A stretch of DNA of 45,509 bases from Veterinaerplatzvirus T145P1. How positions within the stretch are numbered: the first letter of the stretch is position 1; the number at the start of each line of letters is the position of its first letter. Below, in pieces: positions 2,610 to 45,509 of the stretch. The stretch lies in sequence record OZ035793.1. The stretch is one strand, 5' to 3'. The notes below the pieces were generated by a model. The model was not told where the DNA came from. It searched no databases and saw only the letters and a list, made by a program, of their open reading frames with translations. A program made the position numbers and the translations under genes.

Positions 2610-2623
2610 ATTGGAGAAATGCA

Positions 2624-5028: not shown

Positions 5029-5040
5029 GGAGTTATAAAC

Positions 5041-5562
5041 ATGGCAATTCGTTCCGTAGCACTGGCTGGTATGGTTTCTGATACTTCTCTGTACAACATC
5101 GACGGCGCTTGTGTAGTTGGCGGCGCAGCAGCCATTCCGGTTGGCACTTTTGTTGGCGTTACATCCGCTCAGCCTGTAGATGGTCACAAAGTTGTTGGGC
5201 TTCCTGCTGTGACTGGCACACCAGTTAAACCTTACGGTGTTGTTGTTAAATCTCATTATGAGACTCCAGATGGCACCGCTCGCGTAAATGAAGCGGTTAA
5301 CGTGATGACACACGGTCGAATCTGGGTTCGTACAACTCTAGCGGCTGCGCCAGTTTTTGGTAGTAAGGTTTACGTAAACGCGAGTGGCGTTGTTGCTGCT
5401 AAGGCTGCTACCACTACCTGGGAAACTGGTTTTACATTTGCTGGTGGCTATGTGTCGGCTTACGCTGGCGGCGCTGACCCAATTAAGCAAGGTGAAAGCG
5501 TTGATGGTGCAATGGTTGAGGTTCAGTTGATTCAATCAGCAGACTCAACTGTCGCCGCTTAA
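5041..5562 (+). CDS. head structural/decoration protein (putative)
   Basis: Gly/Ala/Val-rich 173 aa protein, strong RBS aaggag, followed by strong terminator 5580-5601. Confidence 0.4.
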   Translation: MAIRSVALAGMVSDTSLYNIDGACVVGGAAAIPVGTFVGVTSAQPVDGHKVVGLPAVTGTPVKPYGVVVKSHYETPDGTARVNEAVNVMTHGRIWVRTTLAAAPVFGSKVYVNASGVVAAKAATTTWETGFTFAGGYVSAYAGGADPIKQGESVDGAMVEVQLIQSADSTVAA

Positions 5563-5579
5563 TAATTAAGATATATAAA

Positions 5580-5601
5580 GCCTCCTTCGGGAGGTTTTTT
5601 T
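5580..5601 (+). terminator. intrinsic terminator (cUUCGg tetraloop)
   Basis: CCTCC-ttcg-GGAGG plus T7. Confidence 0.75.
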
Positions 5602-5607
5602 ATACCA

Positions 5608-5635
5608 TTGCGTGGGCTAAAAACTCGTGTATAAT
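5608..5635 (+). promoter_or_regulatory. sigma70-like promoter TTGCGT-16-TATAAT (capsid gene)
   Basis: Near-consensus hexamers between terminator 5580-5601 and capsid gene RBS. Confidence 0.5.
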
Positions 5636-5673
5636 GAACCCGTAGACACCTAACTGAAAAGGAACAATAAAGA

Positions 5674-6618: not shown

Positions 6619-6624
6619 TAAATC

Positions 6625-6646
6625 GCCCTCTTCGGAGGGCTTTTTT
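6625..6646 (+). terminator. intrinsic terminator (cUUCGg tetraloop)
   Basis: GCCCTC-ttcg-GAGGGC plus T6. Confidence 0.75.
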
Positions 6647-6709
6647 ACGTCTGTACCAAATGGATTTGTTGGGTTATAATCACTAAATCAGATAACAAAG
6701 GAGACAAAA

Positions 6710-6955
6710 ATGATTCGTTTAGAACACACTGGCGCTTGCCTTATCGTTTACAGGGGTGAGAAATATTTGCCTGGTGACACTTTCGAGGTTGATGCAATTT
6801 GCGACGGACTCAAGCGTTTAATCGCAGAGGGTAAACTCACCATTGAGGGTGACGCCAAAGCAACCAAACAAATCGCGCAAGAAGTTGTTAGCAAGAAAAA
6901 GCGCAGAGAACCGAAAACCATCTCCGAGGCTGAGACTGGTAACGAGTACAAATAA
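6710..6955 (+). CDS. hypothetical protein
   Basis: 81 aa ORF with RBS aaggag, bracketed by terminators at 6625-6646 and 6961-6984. Confidence 0.5.
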   Translation: MIRLEHTGACLIVYRGEKYLPGDTFEVDAICDGLKRLIAEGKLTIEGDAKATKQIAQEVVSKKKRREPKTISEAETGNEYK

Positions 6956-6960
6956 TAAAC

Positions 6961-6984
6961 AGGGCGCTTCGGCGTCCTTTATTG
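6961..6984 (+). terminator. weak intrinsic terminator
   Basis: AGGGCGC-ttcg-GCGTCCT with one G-U pair, interrupted T tract TTTATT. Confidence 0.45.
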
Positions 6985-6996
6985 TATGGAGCTAAT

Positions 6997-7398
6997 ATGA
7001 ATGATGCAATTTTGGCGTTTATGCGCTCGCTTGTACCTGCTCTCAAAGCGGCGGATGACGAATCAATTAATGTATGGATTGATTTGGCACGTCTATACGT
7101 ATGCGAAAGCAAGTTTGGCGCAGACAAAGACAAGGCTGTGGGTCTTTATGCGTTACACCTAATGCTTGCTGATGGCGCATTTAAGGGTGAGAACGAAGGG
7201 CTAGAAACATACAGTCGTAGAATGACAAGCTACGCACTGAGCGGTGAATTCTCTATCACATATGATACCCAATCAGCAGCATCTGGTGATTTATCATCTT
7301 CTCAATTCGGTAGGATGTATAAGGCGCTTCTTCGCAAGAAAGGCGGTGGATTTGGATTGATTACTTCCGCTACTGGCGGTGGGTGCGGTTGCCGATGA
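6997..7398 (+). CDS. head-tail connector/adaptor protein (putative)
   Basis: Start trimmed to ATG 6997 behind ggag; position between capsid and tail genes. Confidence 0.35.
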   Translation: MNDAILAFMRSLVPALKAADDESINVWIDLARLYVCESKFGADKDKAVGLYALHLMLADGAFKGENEGLETYSRRMTSYALSGEFSITYDTQSAASGDLSSSQFGRMYKALLRKKGGGFGLITSATGGGCGCR

Positions 7399-7766
7399 AC
7401 TACAGCGAAATAGAATCAATCACTCGCGCTGGAATTAACTTCTTTAGTGATGCCAATGGCGTTTACGAAATGAGCACTGGTGCTGGATATGTTAAAATCG
7501 TCAATGGCGTTGAAGTAGAAGTGCCAGCGCAAACATTCCAGCTAAAAGGCTTAGTGCGAGAAATCAAGACGCGAGATATTGATGGCGAGTTTATCCAGTT
7601 TGGCGATAAGCGCGGAATCTTCACAGCACAGGTAGAAATCAAACAGGGTTATCAGATTAAAGTTGATGGTGAGACTTTTGTTGTTGTTGACCCTCGACCC
7701 GTAAAACCAACCGGCACAGTTGTTGGGTATAGACCGATTCTTCGTAGGGTGGCTACTTATGGCTAA
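7383..7766 (+). CDS. head-tail joining protein (putative)
   Basis: Overlaps neighbours at both ends; synteny. Confidence 0.35.
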   Translation: MRLPMNYSEIESITRAGINFFSDANGVYEMSTGAGYVKIVNGVEVEVPAQTFQLKGLVREIKTRDIDGEFIQFGDKRGIFTAQVEIKQGYQIKVDGETFVVVDPRPVKPTGTVVGYRPILRRVATYG

Positions 7767-8196
7767 AAATATTGGAAGCGTGGCCACTTTTGAGAAATAT
7801 ATTGCTGACTGGATTGATAGAGCGGACAATGGCTTTGAGATTGTAGTGGCCAACACAGTTACAAAGACAGCTAACGCAATTGTAGACCTTTCCCCTGTCG
7901 ACACGGGTAGGTTCAAGGCTAACTGGCAAATCACCGCAAACTCACCAGCTCAGCAGTCTCTTAATGAGTACGATCAGACTGGTGGTCAGACCAAAACATA
8001 TCTCGCCAGGCAAGCAAGAGCTGTCGCCAACTCAAAAGTAACCAGTGTTATTTATATCACCAACCGACTTGATTACGCATCCAACCTTGAGTATGGTGCT
8101 TCAAATCAGGCTCCAGCCGGTGTTTTAGGCGTGGTTCAAGCAAGGTTGGGTAGGTATTTCCAGGAAGCAGTAGAGGAGGCGCGTCGTGCAATATGA
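7759..8196 (+). CDS. neck/tail completion protein (putative)
   Basis: Start trimmed to ATG 7759, which overlaps the upstream stop (ATGGCTAA). Confidence 0.35.
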   Translation: MAKNIGSVATFEKYIADWIDRADNGFEIVVANTVTKTANAIVDLSPVDTGRFKANWQITANSPAQQSLNEYDQTGGQTKTYLARQARAVANSKVTSVIYITNRLDYASNLEYGASNQAPAGVLGVVQARLGRYFQEAVEEARRAI

Positions 8197-8587
8197 ATTA
8201 TCATTAGCGGCAAGGAAATTCGTCAATGATTTACTGGTAAGTGAATTTCCGGTCAGATATCCAGTTGCGTGGGAGAATGCTGCATTCACCCCTCCTGCGG
8301 ATGGATCAATCTGGCTTAAGTACGACTACACGGAAGTTGATACTGTAACCTACGGATTAAGCAGGAAGTGCAAATACTACGTAGGCATGGTGCAGATTTC
8401 TGTTTTCTTCAGCCCGGGCACTGGAGTTGATAAGCCTAGGCAAATCGCTAATCAATTGGCAGAATCTATCGTTGATGGTACAATGCTTGACAGCGGGACC
8501 ATTTATGAGTCTGGAGTTGTTAACCCAGTTATCAAATCCAGATCTGGGTGGTTTATCCCGGTTCGTTTTTATGTTCGTCTAGACTAA
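8186..8587 (+). CDS. tail completion/terminator protein (putative)
   Basis: Overlapping start with upstream gene; immediately precedes major tail protein. Confidence 0.35.
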   Translation: MQYELSLAARKFVNDLLVSEFPVRYPVAWENAAFTPPADGSIWLKYDYTEVDTVTYGLSRKCKYYVGMVQISVFFSPGTGVDKPRQIANQLAESIVDGTMLDSGTIYESGVVNPVIKSRSGWFIPVRFYVRLD

Positions 8588-8602
8588 CAAAAGGAAAAAT
8601 AC

Positions 8603-9259
8603 ATGGCTCATTTATCAAACGGCACTCAGGTGTTCGTAGAAGGCTCTCGCGGTAATGCGATTGACGTAACTGCAATTTCTAACGCAGTTACCCCCGTTTT
8701 AACTGTATCCGACGCTTCTGGTTTGGCCGTTGGTGATTACCTGCTTTTCACCTCTTCTGCCTCTACGCTTCTGGCTGACAAGCAAGTTCGAGTAACTGCA
8801 ATCACTGGTACGTCAGTAACTGTTGAAGGTATTGATACCTCCAGCACCACCAAGTTCCCGGCCGGTTTAACTGGTGAAGTTGTTAAAATCACCTCCTGGT
8901 TCGAAGTTCCGTGTGTTCAGGACGTATCTACTGACGGCGGCGAACAGCAGTTCGTTAACTTCCAATGTCTTTCTGATGACCGCGAGCAGCAGATTCCGAC
9001 TTATAAATCTGCGGTAACAAACACCTTTACCTTTGCTCATGAGTACACTAACCCGGTCTATCCGGTTCTGCGTAACTACGATGAGTCTGGCCAGGTTGTT
9101 GCAATTCGTCTGTTCGTACCTCGCGCCAGCGAAATGCGCTTGCAGTCCGGCACTATCGCTTTCAACGACACCCCTACAATTGGTGTTAATGAAATCGAAA
9201 CGGTATCCATCGCAGTATCCATTCGTGGGCGCCTATCCTCTGTGGCAGCAGAAGTTTAA
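8603..9259 (+). CDS. major tail protein (putative)
   Basis: 218 aa Thr/Val/Ser-rich protein, RBS aaggaaaa, followed by strong terminator 9266-9288; position before chaperone and tape measure. Confidence 0.55.
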   Translation: MAHLSNGTQVFVEGSRGNAIDVTAISNAVTPVLTVSDASGLAVGDYLLFTSSASTLLADKQVRVTAITGTSVTVEGIDTSSTTKFPAGLTGEVVKITSWFEVPCVQDVSTDGGEQQFVNFQCLSDDREQQIPTYKSAVTNTFTFAHEYTNPVYPVLRNYDESGQVVAIRLFVPRASEMRLQSGTIAFNDTPTIGVNEIETVSIAVSIRGRLSSVAAEV

Positions 9260-9265
9260 AGCGCA

Positions 9266-9288
9266 AACCCTCTTCGGAGGGTTTTTTA
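9266..9288 (+). terminator. intrinsic terminator (cUUCGg tetraloop)
   Basis: AACCCTC-ttcg-GAGGGTT plus T6. Confidence 0.75.
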
Positions 9289-9293
9289 TTGCA

Positions 9294-9336
9294 TAGCACT
9301 TTTTGCTAAAGCGGTTATTCAACTTTGCTGTATAGT
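9294..9336 (+). promoter_or_regulatory. composite promoter element
   Basis: ATAGCACTTTTTGCTAAA, 22 bp, TATAGTTA, then CATCGAAACGA leader. Confidence 0.55.
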
Positions 9337-9369
9337 TACCTCATCGAAACGAAATGAGAGATTAAAGAA

Positions 9370-9618
9370 ATGAATAACGTTAAAAACATCATCAAGCTCG
9401 CTGCGGTTCTGTTTGCTTTTTATGCGGTAGTTCAGATTGTAAACCCAACAGGTGAGGCTGATGCCAATAGCAAGGCAAACAAATATACTGTTGAATTTGC
9501 TAAGGATGAGCGAGCATGTCAGGAGCTTGTAGGTGGCAAAGTTGACCAAATCATGAAATACGGCAAAGAGGTTTGTAAGGACTCGGCTGCTAAGATTGCA
9601 AAAGAAAACACTAAGTAA
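9370..9618 (+). CDS. small secreted/membrane-anchored protein (moron)
   Basis: N-terminal hydrophobic signal-like segment, two Cys; own composite promoter element 9294-9336 with CATCGAAACGA leader; inserted between major tail and chaperone genes. Confidence 0.55.
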   Translation: MNNVKNIIKLAAVLFAFYAVVQIVNPTGEADANSKANKYTVEFAKDERACQELVGGKVDQIMKYGKEVCKDSAAKIAKENTK

Positions 9619-9656
9619 TAGAATACATACTCACAAACAATAAGAGGATTAACAAA

Positions 9657-9971
9657 ATGGCAAAGTTCAAACTTTCACTGGCAGCACTCCCAGACTTTAA
9701 GCTACCAGTAAAATTTAAGCTGGCTAACGACCAGGATGTAGAGGTTATCTTTACAGTCAAGCATAAGAAAACATCTGAGTTGCAGGAGCTGCTTAGCAAG
9801 GAAGACTTGAGCACAAAAGAGCTTATTATGGCAATTGCTTCTGATTGGGATCTGGAAGAAGAATACAACGAAGATAACGTTAATGAGTTCTCAGACCTTT
9901 TCCCGGCCTCAACTGTTGCACTGACAACTGCTTACATGCAAGCGCTTGCTGGTCAGCGAGTAAAAAACTAA
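9657..9971 (+). CDS. tail assembly chaperone (lambda gpG-like)
   Basis: 104 aa acidic protein immediately upstream of tape measure; ends in slippery heptamer A_AAA_AAC. Confidence 0.7.
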   Translation: MAKFKLSLAALPDFKLPVKFKLANDQDVEVIFTVKHKKTSELQELLSKEDLSTKELIMAIASDWDLEEEYNEDNVNEFSDLFPASTVALTTAYMQALAGQRVKN

Positions 9972-10291
9972 AACGAGCGGTGTATCTACAGTACCAGTCA
10001 GAGCCAACTGATGCCGAACTGGAAGCTATTGGGATGCGCCGCTCTGATTACGAAGATGAAGAGCCTGAGGTTTTACACTTCGACGACAACATGATGAAGG
10101 CGTGGGACATTTATTGTTCAATGGCTACGCAGTGGAGAGTAGGAGCCAATGGAGCTACAGGGTTAGATTACAACGTGCTAAATTTCCTCTTTAGAGTGTA
10201 TAATGTTTCTGAAGAAGAATTGGTACTCAGCGATTTACGCATCCTTGAAGCTAAGGCTCTTGAGATGATGGATAACCTGAGAAAAAAATAA
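9657..10291 (+). CDS. tail assembly chaperone frameshift fusion (gpGT-like), -1 frameshift at 9962-9968
   Basis: Heptamer a-aaa-aac (9962-9968) lies in the 0 frame just before the stop; the -1 frame is open from 9968 to 10291 and is the same frame as ORF 9980..10291. Confidence 0.6.
9962..9968 (+). other. -1 programmed ribosomal frameshift slippery site A_AAA_AAC
   Basis: Canonical X_XXY_YYZ heptamer in frame with codons AAA AAC, 1 codon before stop of the G-like ORF. Confidence 0.6.
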
Positions 10292-10312
10292 CCCGCTTCG
10301 GCGGGTTTTCTA
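10291..10312 (+). terminator. intrinsic terminator/attenuator
   Basis: ACCCGC-ttcg-GCGGGT plus TTTT. Confidence 0.6.
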
Positions 10313-10326
10313 TTATGGAGGCTTAG

Positions 10327-13308
10327 ATGGCAACAAATGAATTAGCCGGAATCACACTAGCCGTAGATGTTTCGCAAGTAGACAGGGGAACGCAATCCCT
10401 GCAAAAGTTCAGACAGGCAAACCAGCAAGCCGCTTCCGGTATTAGTGAATTCGTCAACGCTGAGCAGGTTGCTAAAAACCAGGCGAGAGATACGGCTCGT
10501 GCACTTTCTGAGCAGCAAGCGTCACTAGCTAAATTGCAAACAGCTATCGACCCAACTGCTGCAAAGTTCCGCAAGCTGCAAGAGGCAGCGGTGGGTCTTG
10601 ATAAGGCATTCGCTGCTGGCGTAGTTCCTGACGAGGAATTTTTCCGCTTAGGTGAGGCGCTAGAAACTCAAAACGCAAAACTTGCTCGTTCACGTGCGGC
10701 GCTAACTGAAGAGGGTAGGGCGGCAGCGCAGGCTGCAAAGGATAAGGCAAAAGCAAAGGCTGAAGCGGATAGATTCATTGCATCACTTGAGCGTCAGGCT
10801 CAAGCGGCAACATTGACGCGTGAGGAGTACTTAAAGTTACAAGCGGCCCAGCTTGGCGTTAGTTCTCAGGCAGCACCCATCATTGACAGAATCGCCGACG
10901 CATCACAGAAGGCAAACACCCAGTTAATTGCTCAGAGTAAGGCTTTTCAGAAATCAGGATTAAGCGCCGGGCAATACAAGAATGCCATATCTCAACTACC
11001 AGCGCAGATTACTGATATTGGCACGTCGCTTGCTGGTGGCATTCCGATTTGGCTTATTGCAATTCAGCAAGGTGGGCAGATCAAGGATGCATTTGGCGGC
11101 ATTGGTAACACCTTTAGATTCGCACTTGCAGCCTTAAACCCATTCAATGTAGCTGTTGGTGTTTTGGGTGGGGTACTTGTAGCTCTTGGTGTTGGTGCGG
11201 CTCAGGCTGAAAGTGAATTCAGAGCATTAAACTCTGCCATTGCATTTTCCAACAACTCTACAATCGCATCAATCTCGCAGGTTAGAGAGTTGGTTAGCTC
11301 TGTTTCTGATGCAACAGGTGCCACCAGAGGGCTTGTGACTAGCATCGCAACAAGCCTTATTGAGCAAGGGAACCTTACGCTGACGCAGATTGACAAGATT
11401 ACTAAATCGACCGCAAGATGGGCGCAGTTGACAGGCAAGGATGCGAAGGAAATTACTGGTTACTATAACCAGATTGCGAGCGACCCAATACAGGGATTGG
11501 TTGATTTGGATAAGCGCTTTAACTTCCTCACTCAGGGGCAGTTGACGACAATCGAAAACCTGAGAAAGACAAAGGGAGAGGTCGAGGCCGTTACCGCCGC
11601 AATTGACATTTTCAGCAAGTCGCAGGAAGCAAACCTTAACGACATAGCAGCGCAGTTAACTCCACTTGAGTTAGCCTGGAATGACTTTAGAAAGTACATC
11701 TCTGACATTTGGGATGCAATTAGCCGCAGAACGGTTGGGGCGCTAAACCTGTTTGTTGACGTAATTGCCGGAACAATTGAGCAGATCAGGGTCTTCATTA
11801 ACCAGGGTGACGTACTGATTGGTGAATTCGTAATTAGCGCAACGCAAGCGCTGCAAAACATTCCTGGTCTTGATGGTGTTGGTGATGACGTCATAAAGAG
11901 CCAGCAGAAGATTATCGATGCAGCCAAGAAGCAAAACCTTGAGCTAGAAAAGTCTATCAAGGAGCGCGATGCCAGAATAAGAGAAGGAGAACTTGGTTAC
12001 GTTACTCGCAGAGAAAATCAGAATACCAATGAGCAGTCAGGCACGGATGAGGAGTTTGCAAAAAGGAAGAAGGCGCTTCAGGATGAACTTGATGCGATCA
12101 AGAAGAACAGGAAAGAAGAAAATGGCAGGGTTAAAGAGCAAAGAGACCTTACAATTGGTTACGAATCTGGCGTACTGGCACTTCAGGCTCAACTCAAGGT
12201 TCTTCAGGAAAATAGGGATATTGGCGCAGTAATAAGTAATGAGCGCAAGCAGTATCTTCATGATGAAGCCAAATTCAGGATTCTTGAGCAGAGGCAGCTT
12301 GATGGTTCAATCACCAAAGAGCAGTCAAGACTTCTTCTTGAGAAGGATAAAGTCCTCGAATTGGCAAGGCAGAAGGCTGAACTTGGAGATCAGATTGTTT
12401 TGCAGGAGCGAGCCAATAAGTTAGCTGAAGATAACCGCAAGAAGATTCTTCAGATTAACAACGAAGCAAAAAACATTGATTTGGGGGCTGGTCTATCTTC
12501 TCGTGAACAACAGAGAGCCAAAGAGATTCAGGCTCTTCAGTCCAATCAGGTTAATGCTGGTGGCGCAATTGATGACGTGGATTTTCAGCAGCTTCTCGAG
12601 GCAAGACGTAACTTTTATGCTCAGGAAGATGCGTTACGTGAAAACTGGCTTGCTGGTGTGAACCAATCCTTTGCTAATTGGGCTGAGAGCGCGACGGATG
12701 CATTCTCAATTGCTGGAAGTTTAACCACCACAGTATTTGAAGGCATTACTGACCAGATTACTGACCTTGTAACAACTGGTGAAACTAACTTCAGAGAGTT
12801 CACTGTTAACATCCTTAAACAGATTGCTAAGATTGCGGCTCAGCTTCTTATTGTTAAGGCTATCGAGTCTAGTTTAAGTAGCTTTGGTGGTACTGGTGGC
12901 GCGATTGGCTCTATCGCATCTGCGATTGGTGGTGGATTCGCTAACGGTGGTTATACTGGTAATGGAGGGAAATACCAACCAGCAGGAACCGTACACCGTG
13001 GTGAGTTTGTATTCACAAAAGAAGCAACTAGTCGAATCGGTGTTAAGAACCTTTACGCTCTAATGAAAGGTTACGCAAACGGTGGTGTCGTTGGTGGTCC
13101 CTCTGGCTATGCAAATGGTGGCTTGGTTTCTGGAGGCACAGATGTTAATGTTAGTGGAATTACGGTTAACGTTAATAGTGGAATTGGAAGTGACCCAGAG
13201 CAGGCCAAGGCGCTGCAAAATGGCGTTAAGGCAATTGTAGCTGAAGAGATTTCTCAGTCTTTCCAGCAGGGTGGCAGAGCTTATCAGTACCTGCGCGGAT
13301 TTAACTAA
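10327..13308 (+). CDS. tail tape measure protein
   Basis: 993 aa, long Ala/Gln/Glu-rich coiled-coil N-terminal half, Gly-rich C-terminus; position after G/GT. Confidence 0.85.
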   Translation: MATNELAGITLAVDVSQVDRGTQSLQKFRQANQQAASGISEFVNAEQVAKNQARDTARALSEQQASLAKLQTAIDPTAAKFRKLQEAAVGLDKAFAAGVVPDEEFFRLGEALETQNAKLARSRAALTEEGRAAAQAAKDKAKAKAEADRFIASLERQAQAATLTREEYLKLQAAQLGVSSQAAPIIDRIADASQKANTQLIAQSKAFQKSGLSAGQYKNAISQLPAQITDIGTSLAGGIPIWLIAIQQGGQIKDAFGGIGNTFRFALAALNPFNVAVGVLGGVLVALGVGAAQAESEFRALNSAIAFSNNSTIASISQVRELVSSVSDATGATRGLVTSIATSLIEQGNLTLTQIDKITKSTARWAQLTGKDAKEITGYYNQIASDPIQGLVDLDKRFNFLTQGQLTTIENLRKTKGEVEAVTAAIDIFSKSQEANLNDIAAQLTPLELAWNDFRKYISDIWDAISRRTVGALNLFVDVIAGTIEQIRVFINQGDVLIGEFVISATQALQNIPGLDGVGDDVIKSQQKIIDAAKKQNLELEKSIKERDARIREGELGYVTRRENQNTNEQSGTDEEFAKRKKALQDELDAIKKNRKEENGRVKEQRDLTIGYESGVLALQAQLKVLQENRDIGAVISNERKQYLHDEAKFRILEQRQLDGSITKEQSRLLLEKDKVLELARQKAELGDQIVLQERANKLAEDNRKKILQINNEAKNIDLGAGLSSREQQRAKEIQALQSNQVNAGGAIDDVDFQQLLEARRNFYAQEDALRENWLAGVNQSFANWAESATDAFSIAGSLTTTVFEGITDQITDLVTTGETNFREFTVNILKQIAKIAAQLLIVKAIESSLSSFGGTGGAIGSIASAIGGGFANGGYTGNGGKYQPAGTVHRGEFVFTKEATSRIGVKNLYALMKGYANGGVVGGPSGYANGGLVSGGTDVNVSGITVNVNSGIGSDPEQAKALQNGVKAIVAEEISQSFQQGGRAYQYLRGFN

Positions 13309-13338
13309 TTAACGGGGCTTCGGCCCCTAAGGATTTTT

Positions 13339-13689
13339 ATGGCAATAGATAATTTTACATGGTGTACACAAATCCAGAATGGTGGAGCTGCATTTTCCAA
13401 TACAAACAATGTTCGTATTGTTAGCTTTGGCAATGGTTTTGAGCAAAGAGGAACAGGGGGCTACCGCAGTAATAAGCGCAGCTACCAGATGACCTATACA
13501 AACAAGGACTGGCGTGAGGTTATGGATTTCTGCTTCAATCACATCATCACACCATTCTTCTGGAAAACACCGCAAGGTGATACTTCTATGTTTGTTATTC
13601 AGCAGGATAGCATTTCAGTTACACCAATTAGTAGCGAAGTTCAGACTGTAAACATGCAATTCGTAGAAGTTTTTAGCTCAATGCGTTAA
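13339..13689 (+). CDS. minor tail protein (lambda gpM-like)
   Basis: 116 aa, first gene of an M-L-K-I-J-like tail-tip block after the tape measure. Confidence 0.6.
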   Translation: MAIDNFTWCTQIQNGGAAFSNTNNVRIVSFGNGFEQRGTGGYRSNKRSYQMTYTNKDWREVMDFCFNHIITPFFWKTPQGDTSMFVIQQDSISVTPISSEVQTVNMQFVEVFSSMR

Positions 13690-13693
13690 ACTA

Positions 13694-13716
13694 AGCCCCT
13701 ATATGGGGCTTTTTGT
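13694..13716 (+). terminator. intrinsic terminator/attenuator
   Basis: AGCCCC-tatat-GGGGCT plus TTTT. Confidence 0.6.
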
Positions 13717-13727
13717 TGGAGAAATAT

Positions 13728-14483
13728 ATGTTAAGTCCAAAGTTTGAAAATCAGTTGCAAAGCCTTTTCCCTGGTGAGATTGTGACACTAATCCAGGTTG
13801 ACGGCACGTCCTTCGGGGGTCTCGTTTATTCGTTCCACAATGAGAACATCTCATACACTCCAGAAGAAATCATGCTGGCTCAAATGAATGGCGAGCCACT
13901 ACCAGAGAAAACCATCACATTTCGTGGTGAAGAGTACGGGCCTAGACCATTTGGAATCTCTGGCATAAATATGACTTCTGACGGAAAGGCCAATAAGGTT
14001 ACATTAACGGTATCAAACGTTGACCAGCGTATTAGTGCGTTAATCCGAACATACAACGGACTTGTTAAAGCTAAGGTTACAATCTGGATTACTACGCGCG
14101 ATAACATCAATGAGGATGGAAGCATTGCTGACGGGGACTATCGCAGATTCGTTTACTTTATTGAGCGACCGAAGCAGGTTGACTACAAGACCGCATCGTT
14201 TGAGCTAAGCAGCCCGATGGATATGGATGGTATTTATATCCCCGCAAGACTTGTTCAGTCTGTTTGCTATTGGGCTTCTAGGGGTTGGTATCGCAGCGGT
14301 AATGGATGCGACTACGCTGGCAATCGTTATTTTGACAAAGACGACAACCCGGTCAGTGATCCGTCTCTAGATTTCTGCGCCGGAACAGTTAATAGCTGTA
14401 AGATTAGATTTGGAGAGAATAACCAGCTTTCATTTGGTGGATGCGCAGCAGCAAGCCTTCAAGCTAAAGCGAATCAGAGCTAA
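13728..14483 (+). CDS. minor tail protein (lambda gpL-like)
   Basis: Start trimmed to ATG 13728 behind ggag (the upstream TTG lies inside the terminator); C-terminal Cys cluster as in gpL. Confidence 0.7.
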   Translation: MLSPKFENQLQSLFPGEIVTLIQVDGTSFGGLVYSFHNENISYTPEEIMLAQMNGEPLPEKTITFRGEEYGPRPFGISGINMTSDGKANKVTLTVSNVDQRISALIRTYNGLVKAKVTIWITTRDNINEDGSIADGDYRRFVYFIERPKQVDYKTASFELSSPMDMDGIYIPARLVQSVCYWASRGWYRSGNGCDYAGNRYFDKDDNPVSDPSLDFCAGTVNSCKIRFGENNQLSFGGCAAASLQAKANQS

Positions 14484-14492
14484 GGGGGAACA

Positions 14493-15251
14493 ATGTTAAC
14501 ACCAAAAGTTAAACTGGAAATCTTCCAGCACGCAAAGGAAGTTTACCCGCATGAGTGCTGTGGAGTTGTTACGCAGAAGGGTCGCGCTCAGAAGTATCAC
14601 AGAATCACCAATGTCAGCAAGGACCCGGAGAATGAGTTTATCCTTGATTCGAATGAGTATGCAGATGTTCTCTTTGAGTTGGCTCACAATGAATCTATTG
14701 TTTACGTAGTTCACTCTCATACGGGTGATGGCGCAACAACAAGGCCTAGCCCAGCGGATATTTGCAGCTGTAATGAATGCGAGGTTCCTTACGTTATTGT
14801 AAGCATCCCAGAGTTGGACATGAGAATCCTTGAGCCTTCAACTATGCCACTGATTGGTCGCCCGTGGGGTTTGGGTAGCTTCGATTGCTGGGGGCTGGTG
14901 ATGAATTTCCACAAGAAGTACGGCGTCAAACTGAATGACTATCGCGTTAATTACCCATGGTGGGAGAAGAAGTACAGCGAAAATATCTATGACGACAACT
15001 GGATCAAGGAAGGCTTTGAGCTGGTAAAAAATTCGGATATTCCTATTGGCTCAATGATTATGATGCAGGTGCAAAGTGAGGTGACAAACCACGCAGGAAT
15101 CTACATTGGCAACAACAGATTCATTCACCATCTTTATGGTAAAATGAGTTCCATTGATATCTACTCCGATTACTGGCGCGAAAGAACAGTGCGAATTGTT
15201 CGCCATAAGGATTTACCAGAGGATGTAAGTTATGACCCAGAAACTGATTGA
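14493..15251 (+). CDS. tail assembly protein (lambda gpK-like; JAMM/MPN + NlpC/P60)
   Basis: N-terminal PHECCG...HSHTGDG metalloprotease-like motif and C-terminal Cys...His segment (DCWG ... HAGIYIG). Confidence 0.8.
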   Translation: MLTPKVKLEIFQHAKEVYPHECCGVVTQKGRAQKYHRITNVSKDPENEFILDSNEYADVLFELAHNESIVYVVHSHTGDGATTRPSPADICSCNECEVPYVIVSIPELDMRILEPSTMPLIGRPWGLGSFDCWGLVMNFHKKYGVKLNDYRVNYPWWEKKYSENIYDDNWIKEGFELVKNSDIPIGSMIMMQVQSEVTNHAGIYIGNNRFIHHLYGKMSSIDIYSDYWRERTVRIVRHKDLPEDVSYDPETD

Positions 15252-15804
15252 TATTAAGTTAGGCCTGTCTCTAGGTAGGAGGTTTGGCAAGGTTCACCAA
15301 ATGGCAGTGAGTAGCGTGCCAGAAGCAATGCGAGCGCTTTGTTCTCAGATTCCATCCTTCAAAGAGTTCATGAATAGCCATGTAGGGCAAAACACAAGAT
15401 ATGCTATTTTTGTGGATGGTAAAAATGTGAACGAGCATCGAATTGCTGATTTTAGTGCCGTTCAGGAGATACGCATCTTGCCAATTCCACAAGGTCGTAA
15501 GTCTGGAGGGTTATTTCAGACAATACTTGGTGCCGCACTAATCGTTGTTGGTGTTGTATTCCAGCAATACTACCTTGTTGGTGCAGGTATCTCTCTTGCT
15601 GCTGGCGGCGTAGCTCAGTTGCTATCACCTCAAGCTACTGGATTGAAAGACCAGAGCAACCAGACAAGTAACAGGGCGTCATATGCATTTGGCTCGGCTG
15701 TGAACACTGTAGCTGCTGGTTATCCAGTTTGTCTTCCGTATGGATATCGAACGGTTGGCGGTTCTGTGTTTAGTGCGGGTTCATATAGTGAAGACATTGC
15801 TTAA
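15232..15804 (+). CDS. tail assembly protein (lambda gpI-like)
   Basis: Overlaps K-like gene; C-terminal hydrophobic Gly/Ala/Val-rich segment; position before J. Confidence 0.6.
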   Translation: MTQKLIDIKLGLSLGRRFGKVHQMAVSSVPEAMRALCSQIPSFKEFMNSHVGQNTRYAIFVDGKNVNEHRIADFSAVQEIRILPIPQGRKSGGLFQTILGAALIVVGVVFQQYYLVGAGISLAAGGVAQLLSPQATGLKDQSNQTSNRASYAFGSAVNTVAAGYPVCLPYGYRTVGGSVFSAGSYSEDIA

Positions 15805-15812
15805 ATATCATA

Positions 15813-15834
15813 CCCGCCTAGTGCGGGTTTTTTA
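15813..15834 (+). terminator. intrinsic terminator/attenuator between I-like and J-like genes
   Basis: CCCGC-ctagt-GCGGG plus T7. Confidence 0.65.
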
Positions 15835-15845
15835 TTTAGTGTAGA

Positions 15846-18800
15846 ATGGCACAAATGATCAAAACAAACATGAGGCTTTGTGATATGGCTGAAGATATTA
15901 AGATTTATGGTGCTAAGGGTGGTAGCCAGAAGCAGCACCAACCAGTGGAACAAGAAGACAACCTGATTTCATTAAACAAGGTCAAGGTATTACTTGCGGT
16001 TGCTGACGGCGAGGTTGACCCTAACTTCTCAATGAAAGATTTATACCTTGCTGACGTTCCGGTGCAAAACCAGGATGGTAGCTACAACTATGATGGTGTT
16101 CGCGCTGAGTTCCGTGCTGGCACGCAGTATCAGGACTATATCGCCGGGCTTGACGGTGCTAACTCAGAGATTCAGGCATCCAGAGAAATCAAGAACGATA
16201 CCCCGTACATCATTGCGGTTAACAATACTCAGCTTTCAGCAATTCGAGTTAAGCTATTTTGGCCTCGACTGGTTAAGCAAGAAAACAACGGAGACCTGAA
16301 CGGAACAACTTGCGAGTACGCAATTGACCTTTCTGTTAATGGTGGTGCTTACCAGGAATACACTCGCGGAGTTGCTAACGGCAAGACAACTACAGGTTAC
16401 GACCGAAGCATTCGCGTAAACCTTCCGGCAGAGTTTGATAGTGCGCTTGTTCGCATCCGTAAGATTACAGCTGACTCAACGAGCAGCACACTGGTTAACG
16501 GAATGCAGATTACAACCTATCAGGAAGTAATCGACGCCAAATTCCGCTACCCGCTTACGGCTCTGGTCTATGTTGAGTTTGGTTCTGACTTGTTCCCTAA
16601 CGGCATCCCGACAATCTCAATAAAGAAGCGTTGGAAGCTAATTCAGGTACCGACAAACTACGACCCGGAGACAAGGACTTACAGCGGGACATGGAATGGC
16701 TTATTCAAGATGGCATGGTCGAATAACCCGGCATGGGTTCTCTATGACCTGGTGACAAACCGACGCTATGGGCTTGACCAGCGAGAGTTGGGTGTAGAGA
16801 TTGATAAATGGGGCTTGTATGAAGCCGCGCAATTCTGTGACCAGATGGTTCCAGATGGTAAGGGTGGTTTAGAGCCGCGTTACCTTTGCGATATGGTTGT
16901 GCAAAACAAGGTTGAGGCCTACACGCTAATTCGTGATATCTGCTCAATCTTCCGTGGTCTGACTTTCTATGACGGTGAAAAGATTGGTATCGTGGTTGAT
17001 AAGCCTCGCAACCCATCTTACATCTTCACCAATGATAACGTTGTAAACGGATTGTTCAGTCGAACCTTTGCCAGTGATAAAAGCCTTTACACCACGGCAA
17101 ACGTCCAGTTTGATGATGTAGAGAACAACTATCAACAGGATGTTGAGCCGGTATTTGAATTAGAGGCAACTCGTCGTTTTGGATTTAACCCTGTAGATTT
17201 AACTGCGATTGGATGCACTCGCAGAAGTGAAGCAAACAGACGTGGCAGATGGCTCCTGAAAACAAACCTGAGAAGCGAAACTATCAGCTTCACTACTGGG
17301 TTGGAAGGTATGATTCCGATGATTGGCGAGGTAATTGCGGTCAATGACGCTGCATGGTCTAGCAACTATCAGTTAAACCTTTCCGGTCGTATTGAGTCAG
17401 TTCAGGGGTTGCAGGTTTTTACCCCTTTTAAAGTTGACGCAGCGCCTGGTGACAGAATTCTTCTGAACAAGCCAGACGGAAGTCCAGAGGCAAGAACTAT
17501 TGCCAGCGTTTCGGAGGATGGAAGAACAATCAACCTTAACACTGCTTTTAGTTTTGTAGCTCAACCTGACACTGTTTTCGCAATCGATAAGGATAATCTC
17601 GCGCTTCAACAGTATGTTGTGACCGGGATTCAAAAAGCAGATTCTGATGGCTCTGATTCATTCCAGTATACGATTACCGCAGTAGAGTATGACCCGAACA
17701 AGTATGATGAGATTGATTATGGTGTAAACATTGTTGACCGCCCAACATCAATTGTTGAGCCTGATAGATTGTCGCCACCTGAGAACTTAACAGTATCAAG
17801 CTACAGTAAGGTTGTTCAAGGGTTGTCAGTTGAGACGATGGTTATCGGATGGGATAAAGCTCCATACGCTAAAACATACAATGTTCAGTGGAGGAAAGAA
17901 AATGGCAACTGGATTAACGTACCCAGAACGGCAAGTACAGAGGTTGATATCGAAGGTATTTACGCAGGAATCTATGACGTTAGGGTTCGCAGCGTATCAG
18001 ATACTGAAAACGTGTCTGCCTGGTCTGGCATTGTAACCGTATCGCTAACTGGCAAGATTGGTCGCCCATCGGCACCTACTGTTATCACGGCATCAACAGA
18101 TGAGGTATTTGGCATCCGTGTTAAGTGGGGTTTCCCTGAGGGTTCTGGTGACACTGCTTACACTGAACTTCAGCAGGTCCCTGATAATGGTGACGGCACT
18201 TACAATCCTGATAACGCAAGTTTGCTGACGTTACTGCCTTATCCAGCCTATGAATACTGGCACACGCCAATTCAGCCGGGTAAGGTCATCTGGTATCGCG
18301 CAAGATTGATTGACAGAATCGGCAATACCTCTGATTGGTCTTATTTCGCTAGAGGTATGAGTACTGACGACGCCAACATCATCAACGATTATATCAAGGT
18401 TGATATTGAAGGCTCGGAGGGTTTTAAATACCTAGAGCAGAATGCGATTCAAAAGAACCAGGACATTCAGAATCAAGCCGAGGCAATCATCGAGAACGCG
18501 CTGGCTAATGATGGCGATGTTCGTCGCATGACTAAGGAGAACGGCAAGCGTAAGGCTGAATATGTTCAGGCTGTGAATCTCATAGCTGATGAAACTCAGG
18601 CGCGTGTAGAGGCTCTTACGCAGCTTAAAGCGCAGATTGATGATGAGGTTGTTTCATCGATTACAGAAGTTCAGACTGCATTAGCAACAGAGACAGAAGC
18701 AAGAACTACTGCGGATACGGCTCTATCAGCAAGACTTGGTGAAAACGAGGCTGCACTAAACCAGAAGCTGGACGCTTTTTCTAACGCCACATCGACTGGT

Positions 18801-19271
18801 GTACAGTATGGGATTAGTCTTGGCCTGAAATACAACGGACAGACTTATTCATCCGGCATGAGTATGGAGCTTGTTGGCACTGGTGGGAATGTTCGCAGTC
18901 AGTTCATCTTTGACGCAAACAGATTCGCAATCAGTAACGGCATTGGTTCTGGTTCCGGTCAGTGGCAACTCCCATTCGTTGTAGAGAATGGAAACGTAAT
19001 AATCCAAAGCGCAGTAATCGGCGATGGCTCAATTACTAACGCTAAGATTGGTAATATAATTTCATCAAATGATTATGTGGCAGGCTCTCAGGGATGGGCG
19101 ATACTGAAAAGTGGTGCGTCAGAGTTCAATAACACAACTGTAAGGGGCAATCTTTACGCTAACAATGGTAACTTTGCTTTTAACGGAACCAATAACACGG
19201 TTCAGATTAACAATAACGGAATCACTGTAAACTTACCGAACGGAGGAAGAGTGGTAGTTGGAGTGTGGTAA
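15846..19271 (+). CDS. central tail fiber / host specificity protein (lambda gpJ-like)
   Basis: 1141 aa; recalled similarity to lambda J in the region VPTNYDPETRTYSGTWNGLFKMAWSNNPAWVLYDL...CDQMVPDGKGGLEPRY; start may instead be ATG 15885. Confidence 0.85.
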   Translation: MAQMIKTNMRLCDMAEDIKIYGAKGGSQKQHQPVEQEDNLISLNKVKVLLAVADGEVDPNFSMKDLYLADVPVQNQDGSYNYDGVRAEFRAGTQYQDYIAGLDGANSEIQASREIKNDTPYIIAVNNTQLSAIRVKLFWPRLVKQENNGDLNGTTCEYAIDLSVNGGAYQEYTRGVANGKTTTGYDRSIRVNLPAEFDSALVRIRKITADSTSSTLVNGMQITTYQEVIDAKFRYPLTALVYVEFGSDLFPNGIPTISIKKRWKLIQVPTNYDPETRTYSGTWNGLFKMAWSNNPAWVLYDLVTNRRYGLDQRELGVEIDKWGLYEAAQFCDQMVPDGKGGLEPRYLCDMVVQNKVEAYTLIRDICSIFRGLTFYDGEKIGIVVDKPRNPSYIFTNDNVVNGLFSRTFASDKSLYTTANVQFDDVENNYQQDVEPVFELEATRRFGFNPVDLTAIGCTRRSEANRRGRWLLKTNLRSETISFTTGLEGMIPMIGEVIAVNDAAWSSNYQLNLSGRIESVQGLQVFTPFKVDAAPGDRILLNKPDGSPEARTIASVSEDGRTINLNTAFSFVAQPDTVFAIDKDNLALQQYVVTGIQKADSDGSDSFQYTITAVEYDPNKYDEIDYGVNIVDRPTSIVEPDRLSPPENLTVSSYSKVVQGLSVETMVIGWDKAPYAKTYNVQWRKENGNWINVPRTASTEVDIEGIYAGIYDVRVRSVSDTENVSAWSGIVTVSLTGKIGRPSAPTVITASTDEVFGIRVKWGFPEGSGDTAYTELQQVPDNGDGTYNPDNASLLTLLPYPAYEYWHTPIQPGKVIWYRARLIDRIGNTSDWSYFARGMSTDDANIINDYIKVDIEGSEGFKYLEQNAIQKNQDIQNQAEAIIENALANDGDVRRMTKENGKRKAEYVQAVNLIADETQARVEALTQLKAQIDDEVVSSITEVQTALATETEARTTADTALSARLGENEAALNQKLDAFSNATSTGVQYGISLGLKYNGQTYSSGMSMELVGTGGNVRSQFIFDANRFAISNGIGSGSGQWQLPFVVENGNVIIQSAVIGDGSITNAKIGNIISSNDYVAGSQGWAILKSGASEFNNTTVRGNLYANNGNFAFNGTNNTVQINNNGITVNLPNGGRVVVGVW

Positions 19272-19278
19272 TAAATAA

Positions 19279-19304
19279 AGCCCCTTAATTGGGGCTTTTC
19301 TTTT
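19279..19304. terminator. bidirectional intrinsic terminator
   Basis: AGCCCC-ttaatt-GGGGCT flanked by A-rich (5') and T-rich (3') tracts, between convergent genes. Confidence 0.7.
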
Positions 19305-20274
19305 AGTAGAAGTTTGGGATAAATGGAAGTGCCATTGATATGTTCGTGTCGAAAGGAAACTGAGCGCCTGTCTGAGTTGAGTAGTTACCTATTACAGATC
19401 CAGGAACAGCCCTAACGGAGCCTCCAGACATGCAAACACCCTTGTATCGTAAGTTGTTATACCCTCCGGTAACTCTAGTTGTAGCGCCGCACCTAAGCAG
19501 CGGGAAGAAACCACCATTTATTGACTGATATCCATTGCTTATTTGTATAAATCCACCAAGAACGAATGGGCGGCGAACACTTGAAAAAACAATCTGACCA
19601 GAACTATTTGACATTGTGAGTCCAGGCCCGGCCGGTGGTGGTTCATTCCTGAATATCACCAGCTGAACATGGGTACTTGCCGCAACATCATCTGTACCTC
19701 CGTAGGTTATATCCCTACACCATATTGTTGATCCATCTGATTCAAGTGATACGTTTGGATTATCCCACTTGCCGAATGGTATTCCGCTAACTGGTAGCGA
19801 TGCTGCACCGTTAACCTGTATGCCCCCAACCCAGGCCGCAGACATTAGCCGCGAGTTGCTTGATATAGCAAGGAAATCAGTTGAGTTCTCAACAAGTATT
19901 CCAGGACTTGATGAGGATGAAGCCGGTAGTATCTCAAAGCAATTACCAGCAAAGTCAATTATTCGACCATTAGCACCATTGAAGTTGCTGATAGTTATCC
20001 TGCCAGTTCCGTCATTTACCTTTTGAAACCCGTTCATGTAATAAACTTCGGGTATAACATCGTAAGCGTCAACGTGGACTGCCTTCGTTGGTAGGCAGAA
20101 AGCCGTAGAGCCAGGAAACATTGTCAATCCAAAATCCCACGAGATTGCCGGGGTTGAAAGTCCATTGGTATTTATTGATCCAGTCACAGCAGGTGCCCTT
20201 AATCCTGCCGTGATTTCCATCGCTGGTCTTCCGTCATTGAGGTCAATCAATATACCCTGCGGCATTATTTCCAC
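19303..20274 (-). CDS. hypothetical protein, possibly tail-fiber/receptor-associated
   Basis: 323 aa Gly/Ser/Asn-rich; convergent with J, co-oriented and overlapping with upstream lipoprotein gene. Confidence 0.5.
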
Positions 20275-32426: not shown

Positions 32427-32678
32427 ATGTTGGGTTTAGATTTTCAGCCAGAGCATTACGATTTAGTATATGGACAAAGTGGCTCTAAGTTTAGAGCGAT
32501 ACCTATTGCTGACTGGTTCCCTCCTGACTATGTTGATGTGAACGCAAAAACTAAAGAAGGTAAGTGGGTGCAGATATACTACTCACCGGCATGTGGAAAC
32601 CTTTGCATGACTGACCTTGACAAAAAATTAGCAATTAGTGCTGATGTGATCGACTACTGGTTGAAAGAAGTTGAATGA
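32427..32678 (+). CDS. hypothetical protein
   Basis: RBS aagga. Confidence 0.5.
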   Translation: MLGLDFQPEHYDLVYGQSGSKFRAIPIADWFPPDYVDVNAKTKEGKWVQIYYSPACGNLCMTDLDKKLAISADVIDYWLKEVE

Positions 32679-44956: not shown

Positions 44957-44985
44957 TTGCATCACTGACCGGAATTATCTAATAT
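44957..44985 (+). promoter_or_regulatory. sigma70-like promoter TTGCAT-17-TAATAT upstream of tRNA
   Basis: Canonical hexamers and spacing; predicted start about 160 nt upstream of the tRNA. Confidence 0.5.
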
Positions 44986-45150
44986 TAACCACGTAGACAA
45001 ACGAGCCATCCAAGATGGAACGGCGCACGGAGCGCAACTACTAAGTCCGTTGCTCATTAAGTAGCGTATGCGGCATTAAGACCTAGCGCAAATAGGCAGA
45101 TTAATCGGCTGTATCAGGCAGCCCCGGAGCCGTAACCGGGACTCATTCAA

Positions 45151-45227
45151 GGCTCGAGTGGCGAAAGTGGATATCGCAAGAGACTTCTAATCTCTAGATT
45201 GCTGGTTCGAATCCAGCCTCGAGCGCC
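45151..45227 (+). tRNA. tRNA-Arg (anticodon UCU) with encoded CCA
   Basis: Hand-folded cloverleaf: 7-bp acceptor GCTCGAG/CTCGAGC, U8, 4-bp D stem GCGA/TCGC, D loop with GG, 5-bp anticodon stem AGAGA/TCTCT, loop CTTCTAA, 5-nt variable loop, T arm GCTGG-TTCGAAT-CCAGC, discriminator G, CCA. Confidence 0.85.
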
Positions 45228-45243
45228 AATCAAGGAGTTCATT

Positions 45244-45426
45244 ATGTGGGATGTGAAGTTGTCCATTCGCTTAATGGGCCGCTCGTGCAATAGCTGCACC
45301 CAAGATTATGTCGCGTCAGTTGCCGCAATCAGCGCTGAGGATGCGGTAGCGAAAGTAAAGGAGATGTCAGGCGCTGACCCTGACACTCACAAATTCCTGG
45401 TAGCTTACGTTCGTGAGCGAAAGTAA
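45244..45426 (+). CDS. hypothetical protein
   Basis: Start trimmed to ATG 45244 behind RBS aaggag; the longer ORF would overlap the tRNA; terminator 45470-45494 follows. Confidence 0.5.
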   Translation: MWDVKLSIRLMGRSCNSCTQDYVASVAAISAEDAVAKVKEMSGADPDTHKFLVAYVRERK

Positions 45427-45469
45427 AAAGTGTTATACCCTCGTTAAGTTTCGTTTCTCTCGTTGTTTT

Positions 45470-45494
45470 TAGCCCTCGCTTGAGGGCTTTTTTT
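45470..45494 (+). terminator. intrinsic terminator
   Basis: AGCCCTC-gctt-GAGGGCT plus T7. Confidence 0.75.
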
Positions 45495-45509
45495 CGTCTG
45501 CAATATGGT

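Follow-up and report, generated by a model that had tools for sequence, protein, structure and literature searches.

Position and composition of the unit

The subject of this analysis is a short transcription unit, and above all the structured leader RNA that opens it, in a stretch of DNA from Veterinaerplatzvirus T145P1 (sequence record OZ035793.1). The whole stretch, 45,509 nucleotides (nt) long, is called the window below. The last 810 bases of the window match Veterinaerplatzvirus T145P1 (OZ035786) at 100% identity and the vB_EcoS-12210 group at about 91%, both being E. coli siphophages of the family Drexlerviridae, subfamily Braunvirinae. The unit spans positions 44957–45497 on the + strand and is ordered promoter, leader RNA, optional tRNA, small open reading frame(s) (ORF), terminator. 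The tRNA region closes, on the right, a block of small + strand ORFs and lies directly 5' of the gene for the terminase small subunit (terS, 30–536). From promoter to terminator the block is about 91% identical to close relatives overall. The unit is a self-contained mini-operon kept throughout Drexlerviridae, since the terminator and, behind it, a promoter belonging to terS itself are conserved in all genera. Sequence comparison indicates that the leader is the older part, and that the tRNA is an interchangeable cargo inside an older and apparently undescribed RNA unit.

Structure of the leader RNA

The leader (44992–45151, + strand) is a structured noncoding RNA of about 160 nt, made of a single-stranded 5' tail, six hairpins (H1–H6) and a 3' tail, ACUCAUUCAAG, adjoining the 5' end of the tRNA. 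Two statements of the original prediction, which was made from the letters of this DNA, are borne out here. The distance from promoter to tRNA is about 160 nt, and the leader has no tRNA-like T arm, as ARAGORN and the Rfam tRNA model detect none, the latter even at E ≤ 10. The 209-nt stretch between the upstream stop codon and the tRNA has matches in 88 phage records, with 95–96% identity in close relatives. Across relatives the leader varies from 157 to 293 nt, and whole hairpin modules are gained or lost.

The fold was assessed on two alignments, one of the window and 17 relatives, the other restricted to 16 leaders (alignment A1). RNAalifold gives 34 pairs for the leaders, 10 of which show compensatory double changes. 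In the named structure 97.9% of the cells are paired, compared with 25–41% when the partners are slid by 1–3 columns, and the double changes, found in 10 pairs and 46 cells, fall to 0–2 in the slid controls. The covariation score is reached by 0 of 500 shuffles. Covarying pairs occur in H1 (4 of 5), H5 (3 of 5), H6 (2 of 5) and the outer stem of H3 (one pair); H2 is invariant within Braunvirinae, and H4 has no covariation. Several pairs are U-G on the + strand (C-A on the opposite strand), so the functional form is the + strand RNA and not the DNA or an antisense transcript. Folding energy is no better than that of shuffled sequences (z = −1.29 for the leader alone, −0.61 with the tRNA). As these energies are not significant, the claim of structure rests on covariation. 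The word "structured" in the original prediction accordingly finds no backing in thermodynamics (z = −1.29) and good backing in the 10 compensatory pairs.

H1 and H2 belong to the 5' core treated below. H3 (45045–45074) has an outer stem (45045 and 45047–45050 with 45070–45074, CCGU/GCGG), in which one pair covaries from G-C to A-U in phages TR2 and ES, and an inner stem (45051–45054 with 45063–45066) weakly supported by one-sided variation. H4 (45082–45096, CCUA-GCGCAAA-UAGG) is a hairpin of the variable region. It is missing from TR2, Rao1 and ES, and other phages have gained or lost entire hairpin modules on its 5' or its 3' side. H5 (45108–45112 with 45118–45122) and H6 (45123–45127 with 45136–45140, loop AGCCGUAA) together occupy 45108–45140. 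In phage A110b (L012, leader region 750–1026) the H5–H6 module is present as a tandem duplicate and so behaves as a unit.

A peptide-coding role of the leader was considered and rejected. The 9-codon ORF found in it needs an AUG inside H1 that is missing from most relatives. Because this ORF is not conserved and the leader lengths differ by non-multiples of 3, the leader is taken to be noncoding. Rfam 15 has no match on 44992–45151 at the gathering threshold or at E ≤ 10, and on 9 diverse homologous loci it finds tRNAs only.

Other roles and folds were also tried. The leader contains 3 GGA (own count) in 160 nt against an estimated 2.5 or so by chance, and a CsrA sponge was rejected. A pseudoknot between the H6 loop (GCCGUA) and UGCGGC was discarded as TR2 and ES do not covary, and a long-range closing helix (GAG/CUC or GUAG/CUAC) is not kept across the family. 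Against a pac site or another role at the DNA level stand the terminal repeat of the T1 record, about 7.6 kb away, and the U-G pairs of the + strand. H3 holds a word, UGCUCAUUAAG, that agrees at 9 of 11 positions with the boxA consensus (rrn/lambda); it is confined to Braunvirinae and lies outside the universal core.

Occurrence of the leader

A leader profile (nhmmer, built on A1) run over 276 fetched loci recovers known isolates, about 12 contigs from metagenomes and, from a Nitratidesulfovibrio assembly, a single contig of 46.7 kb. A tRNA-Arg lies 3' of the leader in all 34 copies of the Braunvirinae type that are not cut by a contig end. Exact-pattern scans of IMG/VR, metagenomes and GTDB with GC-rich leader words returned mostly chance matches in high-GC organisms; about a dozen true members were left after filtering with nhmmer. 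The genome scans gave no copy of the leader in the host (E. coli).

The Nitratidesulfovibrio contig (L208, NZ_VSMK01000220.1, 46,669 nt, from N. liaohensis XJ01) carries a leader of the E. coli-phage type with a tRNA-Arg. This genome-size contig in the assembly of a sulfate reducer probably stems from contamination with a Braunvirinae phage. Near-identical E. coli-phage sequence is also present in the records labelled "Campylobacter phage A110b" and "Pseudomonas phage PsgS01F".

A family-wide 5' core, with and without a tRNA

The first part of the leader (44992–45035, + strand) is a core consisting of the tail CGUAGACAAACGAG (44992–45005), H1 (CCAUC/GAUGG, 45006–45010 with 45014–45018), the linker AACG and H2 (GCGC-ACGGA-GCGC, 45023–45026 with 45032–45035). 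In every Drexlerviridae lineage sampled it stands directly after the promoter, the tail being single-stranded, purine-rich and of the form CGUAGAC..GAG. This architecture is seen in T1, NBD2, LF82-11, L289/L290, Sin4, YSP2, tiwna and ESP2949. Behind the core comes a series of hairpin modules, the variable middle of the leader. Three unpaired parts, namely the 5' tail, the linker AACG and the CGUAA of the H6 loop, are conserved across genera.

In phage T1 (Tunavirinae) the corresponding gap measures 164 nt and contains the promoter TTGACC-18-TAGTAT, the 5' start CGTAGACAGACGAG, H1 and AACG. The stem of its H2 hairpin is unrelated in sequence to that of the window, and its final hairpin loop AGACCCGUAA and tail AACAAUUCAAG resemble the H6 loop AGCCGUAA and the tail ACUCAUUCAAG of the window. 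The loop motif ..CCGUAA recurs in T1 (AGACCCGUAA), in NBD2 and in YSP2 (AACCGUAA). The T1 element runs straight into the Shine-Dalgarno sequence (SD) and ATG of gene 57, and the T1 genome has no tRNA. In Vilniusvirus NBD2 and phage LF82-11 the element is followed by tRNA-Ser(GCU). Core and promoter occur without any tRNA in Webervirus Sin4, Tlsvirus YSP2, Warwickvirus tiwna and Kyungwonvirus ESP2949-1, as well as in L289/L290, two IMG/VR phages whose terS is 47% identical to that of the window. Across lineages the slot between leader and small ORF holds nothing, tRNA-Ser(GCU), tRNA-Arg(UCU), tRNA-Arg(CCU) or two tRNAs. The original prediction had described the leader as a 160-nt 5' extension of the tRNA. 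That framing has to be reversed, as the element is found next to the promoter without a tRNA or with tRNA-Ser(GCU). This distribution suggests that the leader predates the tRNA, which would have been gained and not lost.

Among 12 lineages, H1 is paired in 46 of 48 cells and H2 in 48 of 48, with 3–4 pair types per position. When the 5' strand of one phage is set against the 3' strand of another, the paired fraction falls to means of 0.51 (H1) and 0.58 (H2), with a maximum of ≤0.85 in 2000 shuffles. MAFFT failed to align the core across genera, and the 12-lineage alignment is a manual, structural one, used with a descriptor scan in place of a covariance model. The descriptor test was added because the stems of H1 and H2 had been picked by eye. 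The descriptor, which combines sequence and structure and was derived from non-Braunvirinae members only, has a single match in the window, at 44992–45035. Outside the family it has 0 matches on either strand of the 4.0 Mb searched, among them a 50-kb piece of E. coli, the tRNA region of T4, the remainder of T1 and over 200 unrelated loci. The 5' core has no second copy elsewhere in the window genome.

In tiwna (L293, about 475–590) and L289 (about 1911–2005) the leader ends in a long imperfect hairpin with a U-run, just 5' of the SD of the next ORF. Both end hairpins look like a terminator or attenuator when folded, and neither is called by the terminator scanner.

Promoter of the unit

The unit starts with a sigma-70-type promoter (44957–44985, + strand) composed of the −35 hexamer TTGCAT (44957–44962), a 17-nt spacer and the −10 hexamer TAATAT (44980–44985). 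It is preceded by the A-rich stretch TTGTTAAAAATAG, and the predicted transcription start is at about 44991–44993. This promoter had been called canonical; its position and spacing are upheld, but the hexamers agree with the consensus at only 7 of 12 positions (3/6 in the −35, 4/6 in the −10), and it is not listed by the consensus scanner, which has a threshold of 9/12. In the alignment the hexamers are kept across 17 relatives, and the −10 retains TAnnnT. ES and other genera have non-homologous near-consensus promoters 5–7 nt 5' of the conserved RNA start, for example TTGACA-17-TACATT, TTGACA-17-TAGCAT (10/12) and TTGACG-17-TAACAT, the second and third of which the scanner lists. Such replacements, of the pattern TTGAC(A/G/C/T)-17/18-TAnnnT, stand at equal distance in ES, T1, NBD2, LF82-11, L289, Sin4, YSP2, tiwna and ESP2949, and those of tiwna (10/12) and L289 (9/12 with a TG extension) were called by the scanner. 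The window promoter is credible despite its 7/12 because its position is conserved and because near-consensus promoters replace it elsewhere.

A near-copy of the promoter word, TTGCATGACTGACC, lies at 32603–32618 on the + strand. It falls inside a coding sequence (CDS) and has no good −10 hexamer, and a second copy of the promoter there was rejected as probably a chance match. No transcriptome of a T1-family phage was found in the literature searched.

The tRNA-Arg and its alleles

The single tRNA found by ARAGORN in the whole window is tRNA-Arg(tct) at 45152–45228 on the + strand, with the anticodon UCU and an encoded CCA (45226–45228). Rfam RF00005 scores it at 66.1 bits against a gathering score of 29. 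The cloverleaf is perfect, with stems of 7/4/5/5 bp and the T-loop UUCGAAU. Arginine identity elements of tRNA are A20, C35 and U36 or G36. The D-loop AAGUGGAUA of the window tRNA puts A at position 20, and the anticodon is U34 C35 U36. The identification of a tRNA-Arg(UCU) with encoded CCA in the original prediction, for which a call by a tRNA scanner was the proposed check, is therefore confirmed by ARAGORN, Rfam and the cloverleaf; the coordinates given there, 45151–45227, are one base too far left.

The window allele of this tRNA is confined to five records, namely three T145P1 records, BEK2 and BEK3. Compared with phage SU57, the window has 99.4% identity in the leader, 94% in the downstream region and just 73% in the tRNA. 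The tRNA allele has thus been swapped behind a near-identical leader, even between close relatives. Phages ACG-M12 and IME542 carry a third tRNA-Arg(UCU) allele, and TR2, Rao1 and ES have tRNA-Arg(CCU) in the slot. At least four tRNA-Arg alleles (three UCU, one CCU) thus share one slot behind nearly identical leaders, as seen in the window and at L002 1710–1787, L006 1169–1243 and L007 1135–1210. The alleles have the T arm and the outer acceptor bases in common, which would permit recombination inside the tRNA gene. An origin of the window tRNA from the host was rejected, with 0 matches in 5,426 E. coli genomes. The word UCAAG is present on both flanks of the tRNA (45147–45151 and 45230–45234), and T1 has a single AAUUCAAGAGGA at the corresponding junction of leader and ORF. 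This repeat is consistent with insertion of the tRNA at the leader-ORF junction.

A tRNA-Arg is already annotated in many relatives. Rtp and DTL are said to be without the tRNA (MSK paper, PMC8421802). ARAGORN contradicts this, as it finds an unannotated tRNA-Arg(UCU) in both Rtp (L005 993–1069) and DTL (L004 914–991); in DTL the annotated CDS "ORF 26" (929–1189) overlaps the tRNA. Phage PCEc3 has a second, 99-nt tRNA-like gene directly 3' of its tRNA-Arg (L001 2121–2219). Annotated as tRNA-Ile, it reaches 39.4 bits with Rfam and goes uncalled by ARAGORN; it may contain an intron or an unusual arm.

AGA and AGG usage

Phage tRNAs are classically thought to supply codons that are rare in the host. 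Codons of the window were counted in a greedy ORF set that covers 91% of it, and compared with the annotated genes of E. coli K-12 between 1.00 and 1.05 Mb (a 50-kb sample). Per 1000 codons the window has 9.7 AGA and 6.9 AGG, together 16.6 or 36% of the Arg codons; in the K-12 sample the values are 1.5 and 0.7, together 2.2 or 3.8%. The excess in the phage has an odds ratio of 7.7 (p = 7e-41). Phage usage above that of the host, on which the original prediction had made its codon argument depend, is thus found (36% vs 3.8% of Arg codons). The tRNA-bearing window phage is also richer in AGA and AGG than T1 (36% vs 24.7% of Arg codons). T1 reaches its 24.7% without any tRNA, so codon supply is not an absolute need for a T1-type phage. 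The codon-supply rationale for the tRNA is weakened.

Function of the leader

The best explanation, to which we assign a probability of about 0.65 as a whole, is a conserved mini-operon transcribed by the host RNA polymerase, in which an ancestral leader is released as a regulatory RNA and the tRNA is cargo. Transcription would start at about 44992. RNase P would cut between 45151 and 45152 and free the tRNA, which would supplement the decoding of the rare codons AGA and AGG. The same cut would free the 160-nt leader as a discrete 5'-triphosphate RNA, and the freed leader would act via its single-stranded 5' end together with H1 and H2, by RNA pairing or by protein binding. A strongly transcribed stable-RNA unit of this kind would also be a convenient site for insertion of a tRNA gene.

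With modest confidence, release of the leader as a regulatory RNA is preferred to a cis-acting function. Among the unpaired parts the extreme 5' end is conserved best, as is typical of seed-bearing small RNAs, and the body is built of modules. A hairpin and U-run close the leader in some members, and lineages with a tRNA would obtain an exact 3' end from RNase P. tRNAs or extra ORFs are tolerated between the leader and the small ORF. Of the two possibilities named in the original prediction, a processed spacer or a separate small RNA, the second is closer to the evidence, and the first is contradicted by the homologs that have no tRNA.

Several points weigh against this explanation. The start site, release by RNase P and stability of the freed leader are all inferred. 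The window promoter is weak by consensus, folding energy does not separate the leader from its shuffles, and the stems of the 12-lineage alignment were chosen by eye. The polarity of tRNA gain depends on parsimony and the flanking UCAAG repeat, and T1 uses AGA and AGG without a tRNA to read them. In T1, YSP2 and Sin4 nothing that obviously marks a 3' end separates the element from the SD and ATG of the next ORF; a cis-acting 5' untranslated region (5' UTR) accounts for this layout no less well than a released small RNA does. The window leader itself ends without a terminator and would depend on RNase P for its 3' end.

The alternative that the leader is a cis-acting 5' element, that is, an attenuator, a protein-binding operator or a polymerase-modifying RNA, is possible, although on the whole we consider it unlikely. 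Such an element would control the flow of transcription or translation into the tRNA and the small ORF, and perhaps past the terminator into the late genes. Its constant place directly after the promoter, at the 5' end of the transcript whatever comes next, is what a cis-acting element would show, and in T1, YSP2 and Sin4 it is the plain 5' UTR of the next ORF. The end hairpins and U-runs of tiwna and L289 look attenuator-like, but they are uncalled by the scanner, and the window leader has no terminator-like 3' hairpin. Antitermination is tempting as the late gene cluster (1–20000, + strand) is rich in terminator-like sites (32 vs 17.3 ± 4.1 in shuffles) and poor in promoter-like ones (18 vs 30.7). 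However, a conserved extended −10 promoter belonging to terS stands immediately behind the terminator of the unit, so that late transcripts need not include the leader. The tolerated insertions of tRNAs and ORFs between leader and small ORF argue against an operator linked to the ribosome-binding site, and cleavage by RNase P would sever the leader from the elongating polymerase.

That the leader is a passive processed spacer, with hairpins that serve at most for precursor stability or for processing by RNase P or RNase E, is highly improbable. It abuts the 5' end of the tRNA, tRNA-Arg follows in 34 of 34 complete Braunvirinae-type copies and the folding energy is unexceptional, all of which a spacer would allow. 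The element nevertheless exists without a tRNA in T1 and four other genera, it is more conserved than its tRNA (99.4% vs 73% against SU57), and its unpaired 5' tail, AACG linker and H6 loop CGUAA are conserved across genera. A purely passive spacer is in our judgement excluded because tRNA-less homologs exist and the leader outconserves the tRNA. There is equally little in favour of the idea that the leader consists of one or more degenerate tRNA genes, or is a tRNA-like stable RNA akin to rnaC and rnaD of T4. In subcluster 2 of T4 the tRNA-Arg(UCU) of a coliphage is joined on one transcript to structured RNAs of 120–140 nt, rnaD (species 2) and rnaC (species 1), in the contiguous order tRNA-Arg, rnaD, rnaC; in the window, tRNA and leader are likewise adjacent and presumably co-transcribed. 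rnaD (T4 locus L278, minus strand, 2054–2172 and 1909–2047 for the two RNAs) ends in the 10-mer AACGGCGCAC, which is the most invariant stretch of the Braunvirinae leader, and rnaC shares three 8-mers with the leader, AGTAGCGT, CAACTACT and TAACCGGG. All of these matches came to notice post hoc, and for each of them p is about 0.02 in comparison with shuffles and natural windows. H5 of the T1 type (NNGC-AUAGUGGUUAA-GCNN) is D-arm-like and is followed by one base and a 5-bp stem. On the other side, the leader gives no match with ARAGORN or, even at E ≤ 10, with the Rfam tRNA model, the nhmmer leader profile has no match in the T4 region, and local alignment is near shuffle level. The T4 RNAs lie 3' and not 5' of the tRNA-Arg, rnaC has a tRNA-like T arm that the leader does not have, and the Drexlerviridae element occurs also without a tRNA and has no significant sequence or profile similarity to them. 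The T4 arrangement tRNA-Arg-rnaD-rnaC is the closest one known, similar in kind and not demonstrably homologous. To our knowledge, rnaC and rnaD have had no known function for 50 years.

A wider interpretation, which we regard as speculative and doubtful, would make the leader a new class of phage regulatory RNA, either trans-acting or binding the polymerase or a host factor, that extends from T1 to the Weberviruses of Klebsiella and forms a docking platform for tRNA exchange, and that is maybe distant kin of T4 rnaC and rnaD.

Comparison with other known systems

The window tRNA shares with E. coli argU (dnaY) the anticodon UCU, the loop CUUCUAA, A20 and C35, and is about 67% identical to it. 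The unit also recalls HK022 put and the PR'-6S-tR' region of lambda, where transcription from a constitutive host-type promoter directly gives a structured RNA, 5' of a terminator and of a terminator-rich late cluster. It differs in that Drexlerviridae late genes have their own promoter 3' of the terminator and in that H1 and H2 are short (4–5 bp). Enterobacterial small RNAs of the RybB/OmrA type, with their conserved single-stranded 5' seed, provide an architectural analogy only. They share with the leader a conserved single-stranded 5' end followed by hairpins, and the leaders of tiwna and L289 end like them in a hairpin and U-run, whereas those of the window, T1 and YSP2 have no terminator.

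Phage tRNAs may also be counter-defence cargo, as described for T5 tRNA-Lys against PARIS and for a phage tRNA-Tyr against retron Eco7 (both as cited in PMC12916289). Turnover of tRNAs at one locus (four Arg alleles, Ser, none) is a point of likeness, and by analogy it would suit an arms race. A point of difference is that the anticodon loop of the window tRNA is identical to that of the host. We know of no tRNA-Arg(UCU)-specific defence nuclease directed against these phages.

Novelty and significance

Literature searches turned up nothing on this element, on leader RNAs of the T1 family or on antitermination in it, and the MSK paper reports "no sRNA" (PMC8421802). The leader is a family-wide RNA element without an Rfam family and appears to be undescribed. 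The tRNA and its promoter are the ordinary part. The observation behind the original prediction is confirmed and its interpretation partly supported.

Single tRNA genes in T1-like phages are usually annotated and then dismissed as codon helpers. The leader is a concrete candidate RNA family to model, and the matched lineages with and without cargo at one site are a natural experiment on tRNA acquisition by phages. For a family about whose gene regulation very little is known, the unit moreover provides an early transcription unit that is well delimited and strongly conserved. Its small partner ORF is found in 789 phage genomes, many of them candidates for phage therapy against E. coli, Klebsiella, Salmonella, Shigella and Cronobacter.

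Small ORF, terminator and late genes

The small ORF of the window (45244–45426, + strand) encodes 60 amino acids, belongs to phrog_2919 and is preceded by the SD AAGGAG (45232–45237). It is presumably co-transcribed with the leader and the tRNA. The family has an invariant M-G-x-x-C-x-x-C motif, and tblastn finds the homologs in the 789 phage records mentioned above. The protein has no match in Pfam or PDB, and its profile matches to metal-binding domains of copper ATPases are weak and not significant (E of about 0.1). One GenBank record names a homolog "bacterial RNA polymerase inhibitor". A T7 Gp2-like inhibitor of RNA polymerase was rejected, as hhalign gives it a probability of 10.7%.

The unit ends in the intrinsic terminator AGCCCUC-GCUU-GAGGGCU followed by U7 (45471–45497, hairpin 45471–45488, + strand), and a strong terminator is present at this position in all sampled genera. 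The extended −10 promoter of terS, TGGTATAAT, starts at 45506–45509 on the + strand and continues over the end of the window into positions 1–5. In contiguous relatives of every genus, TGnTATAAT or a variant with one mismatch stands directly after the terminator and 23–32 nt 5' of the terS ATG. In the late cluster that follows, terminators on the same strand occur for example at 2587, 6625, 6961, 9265, 10290, 13693, 15812 and 19277, and the T1 record annotates about 20 such terminators.

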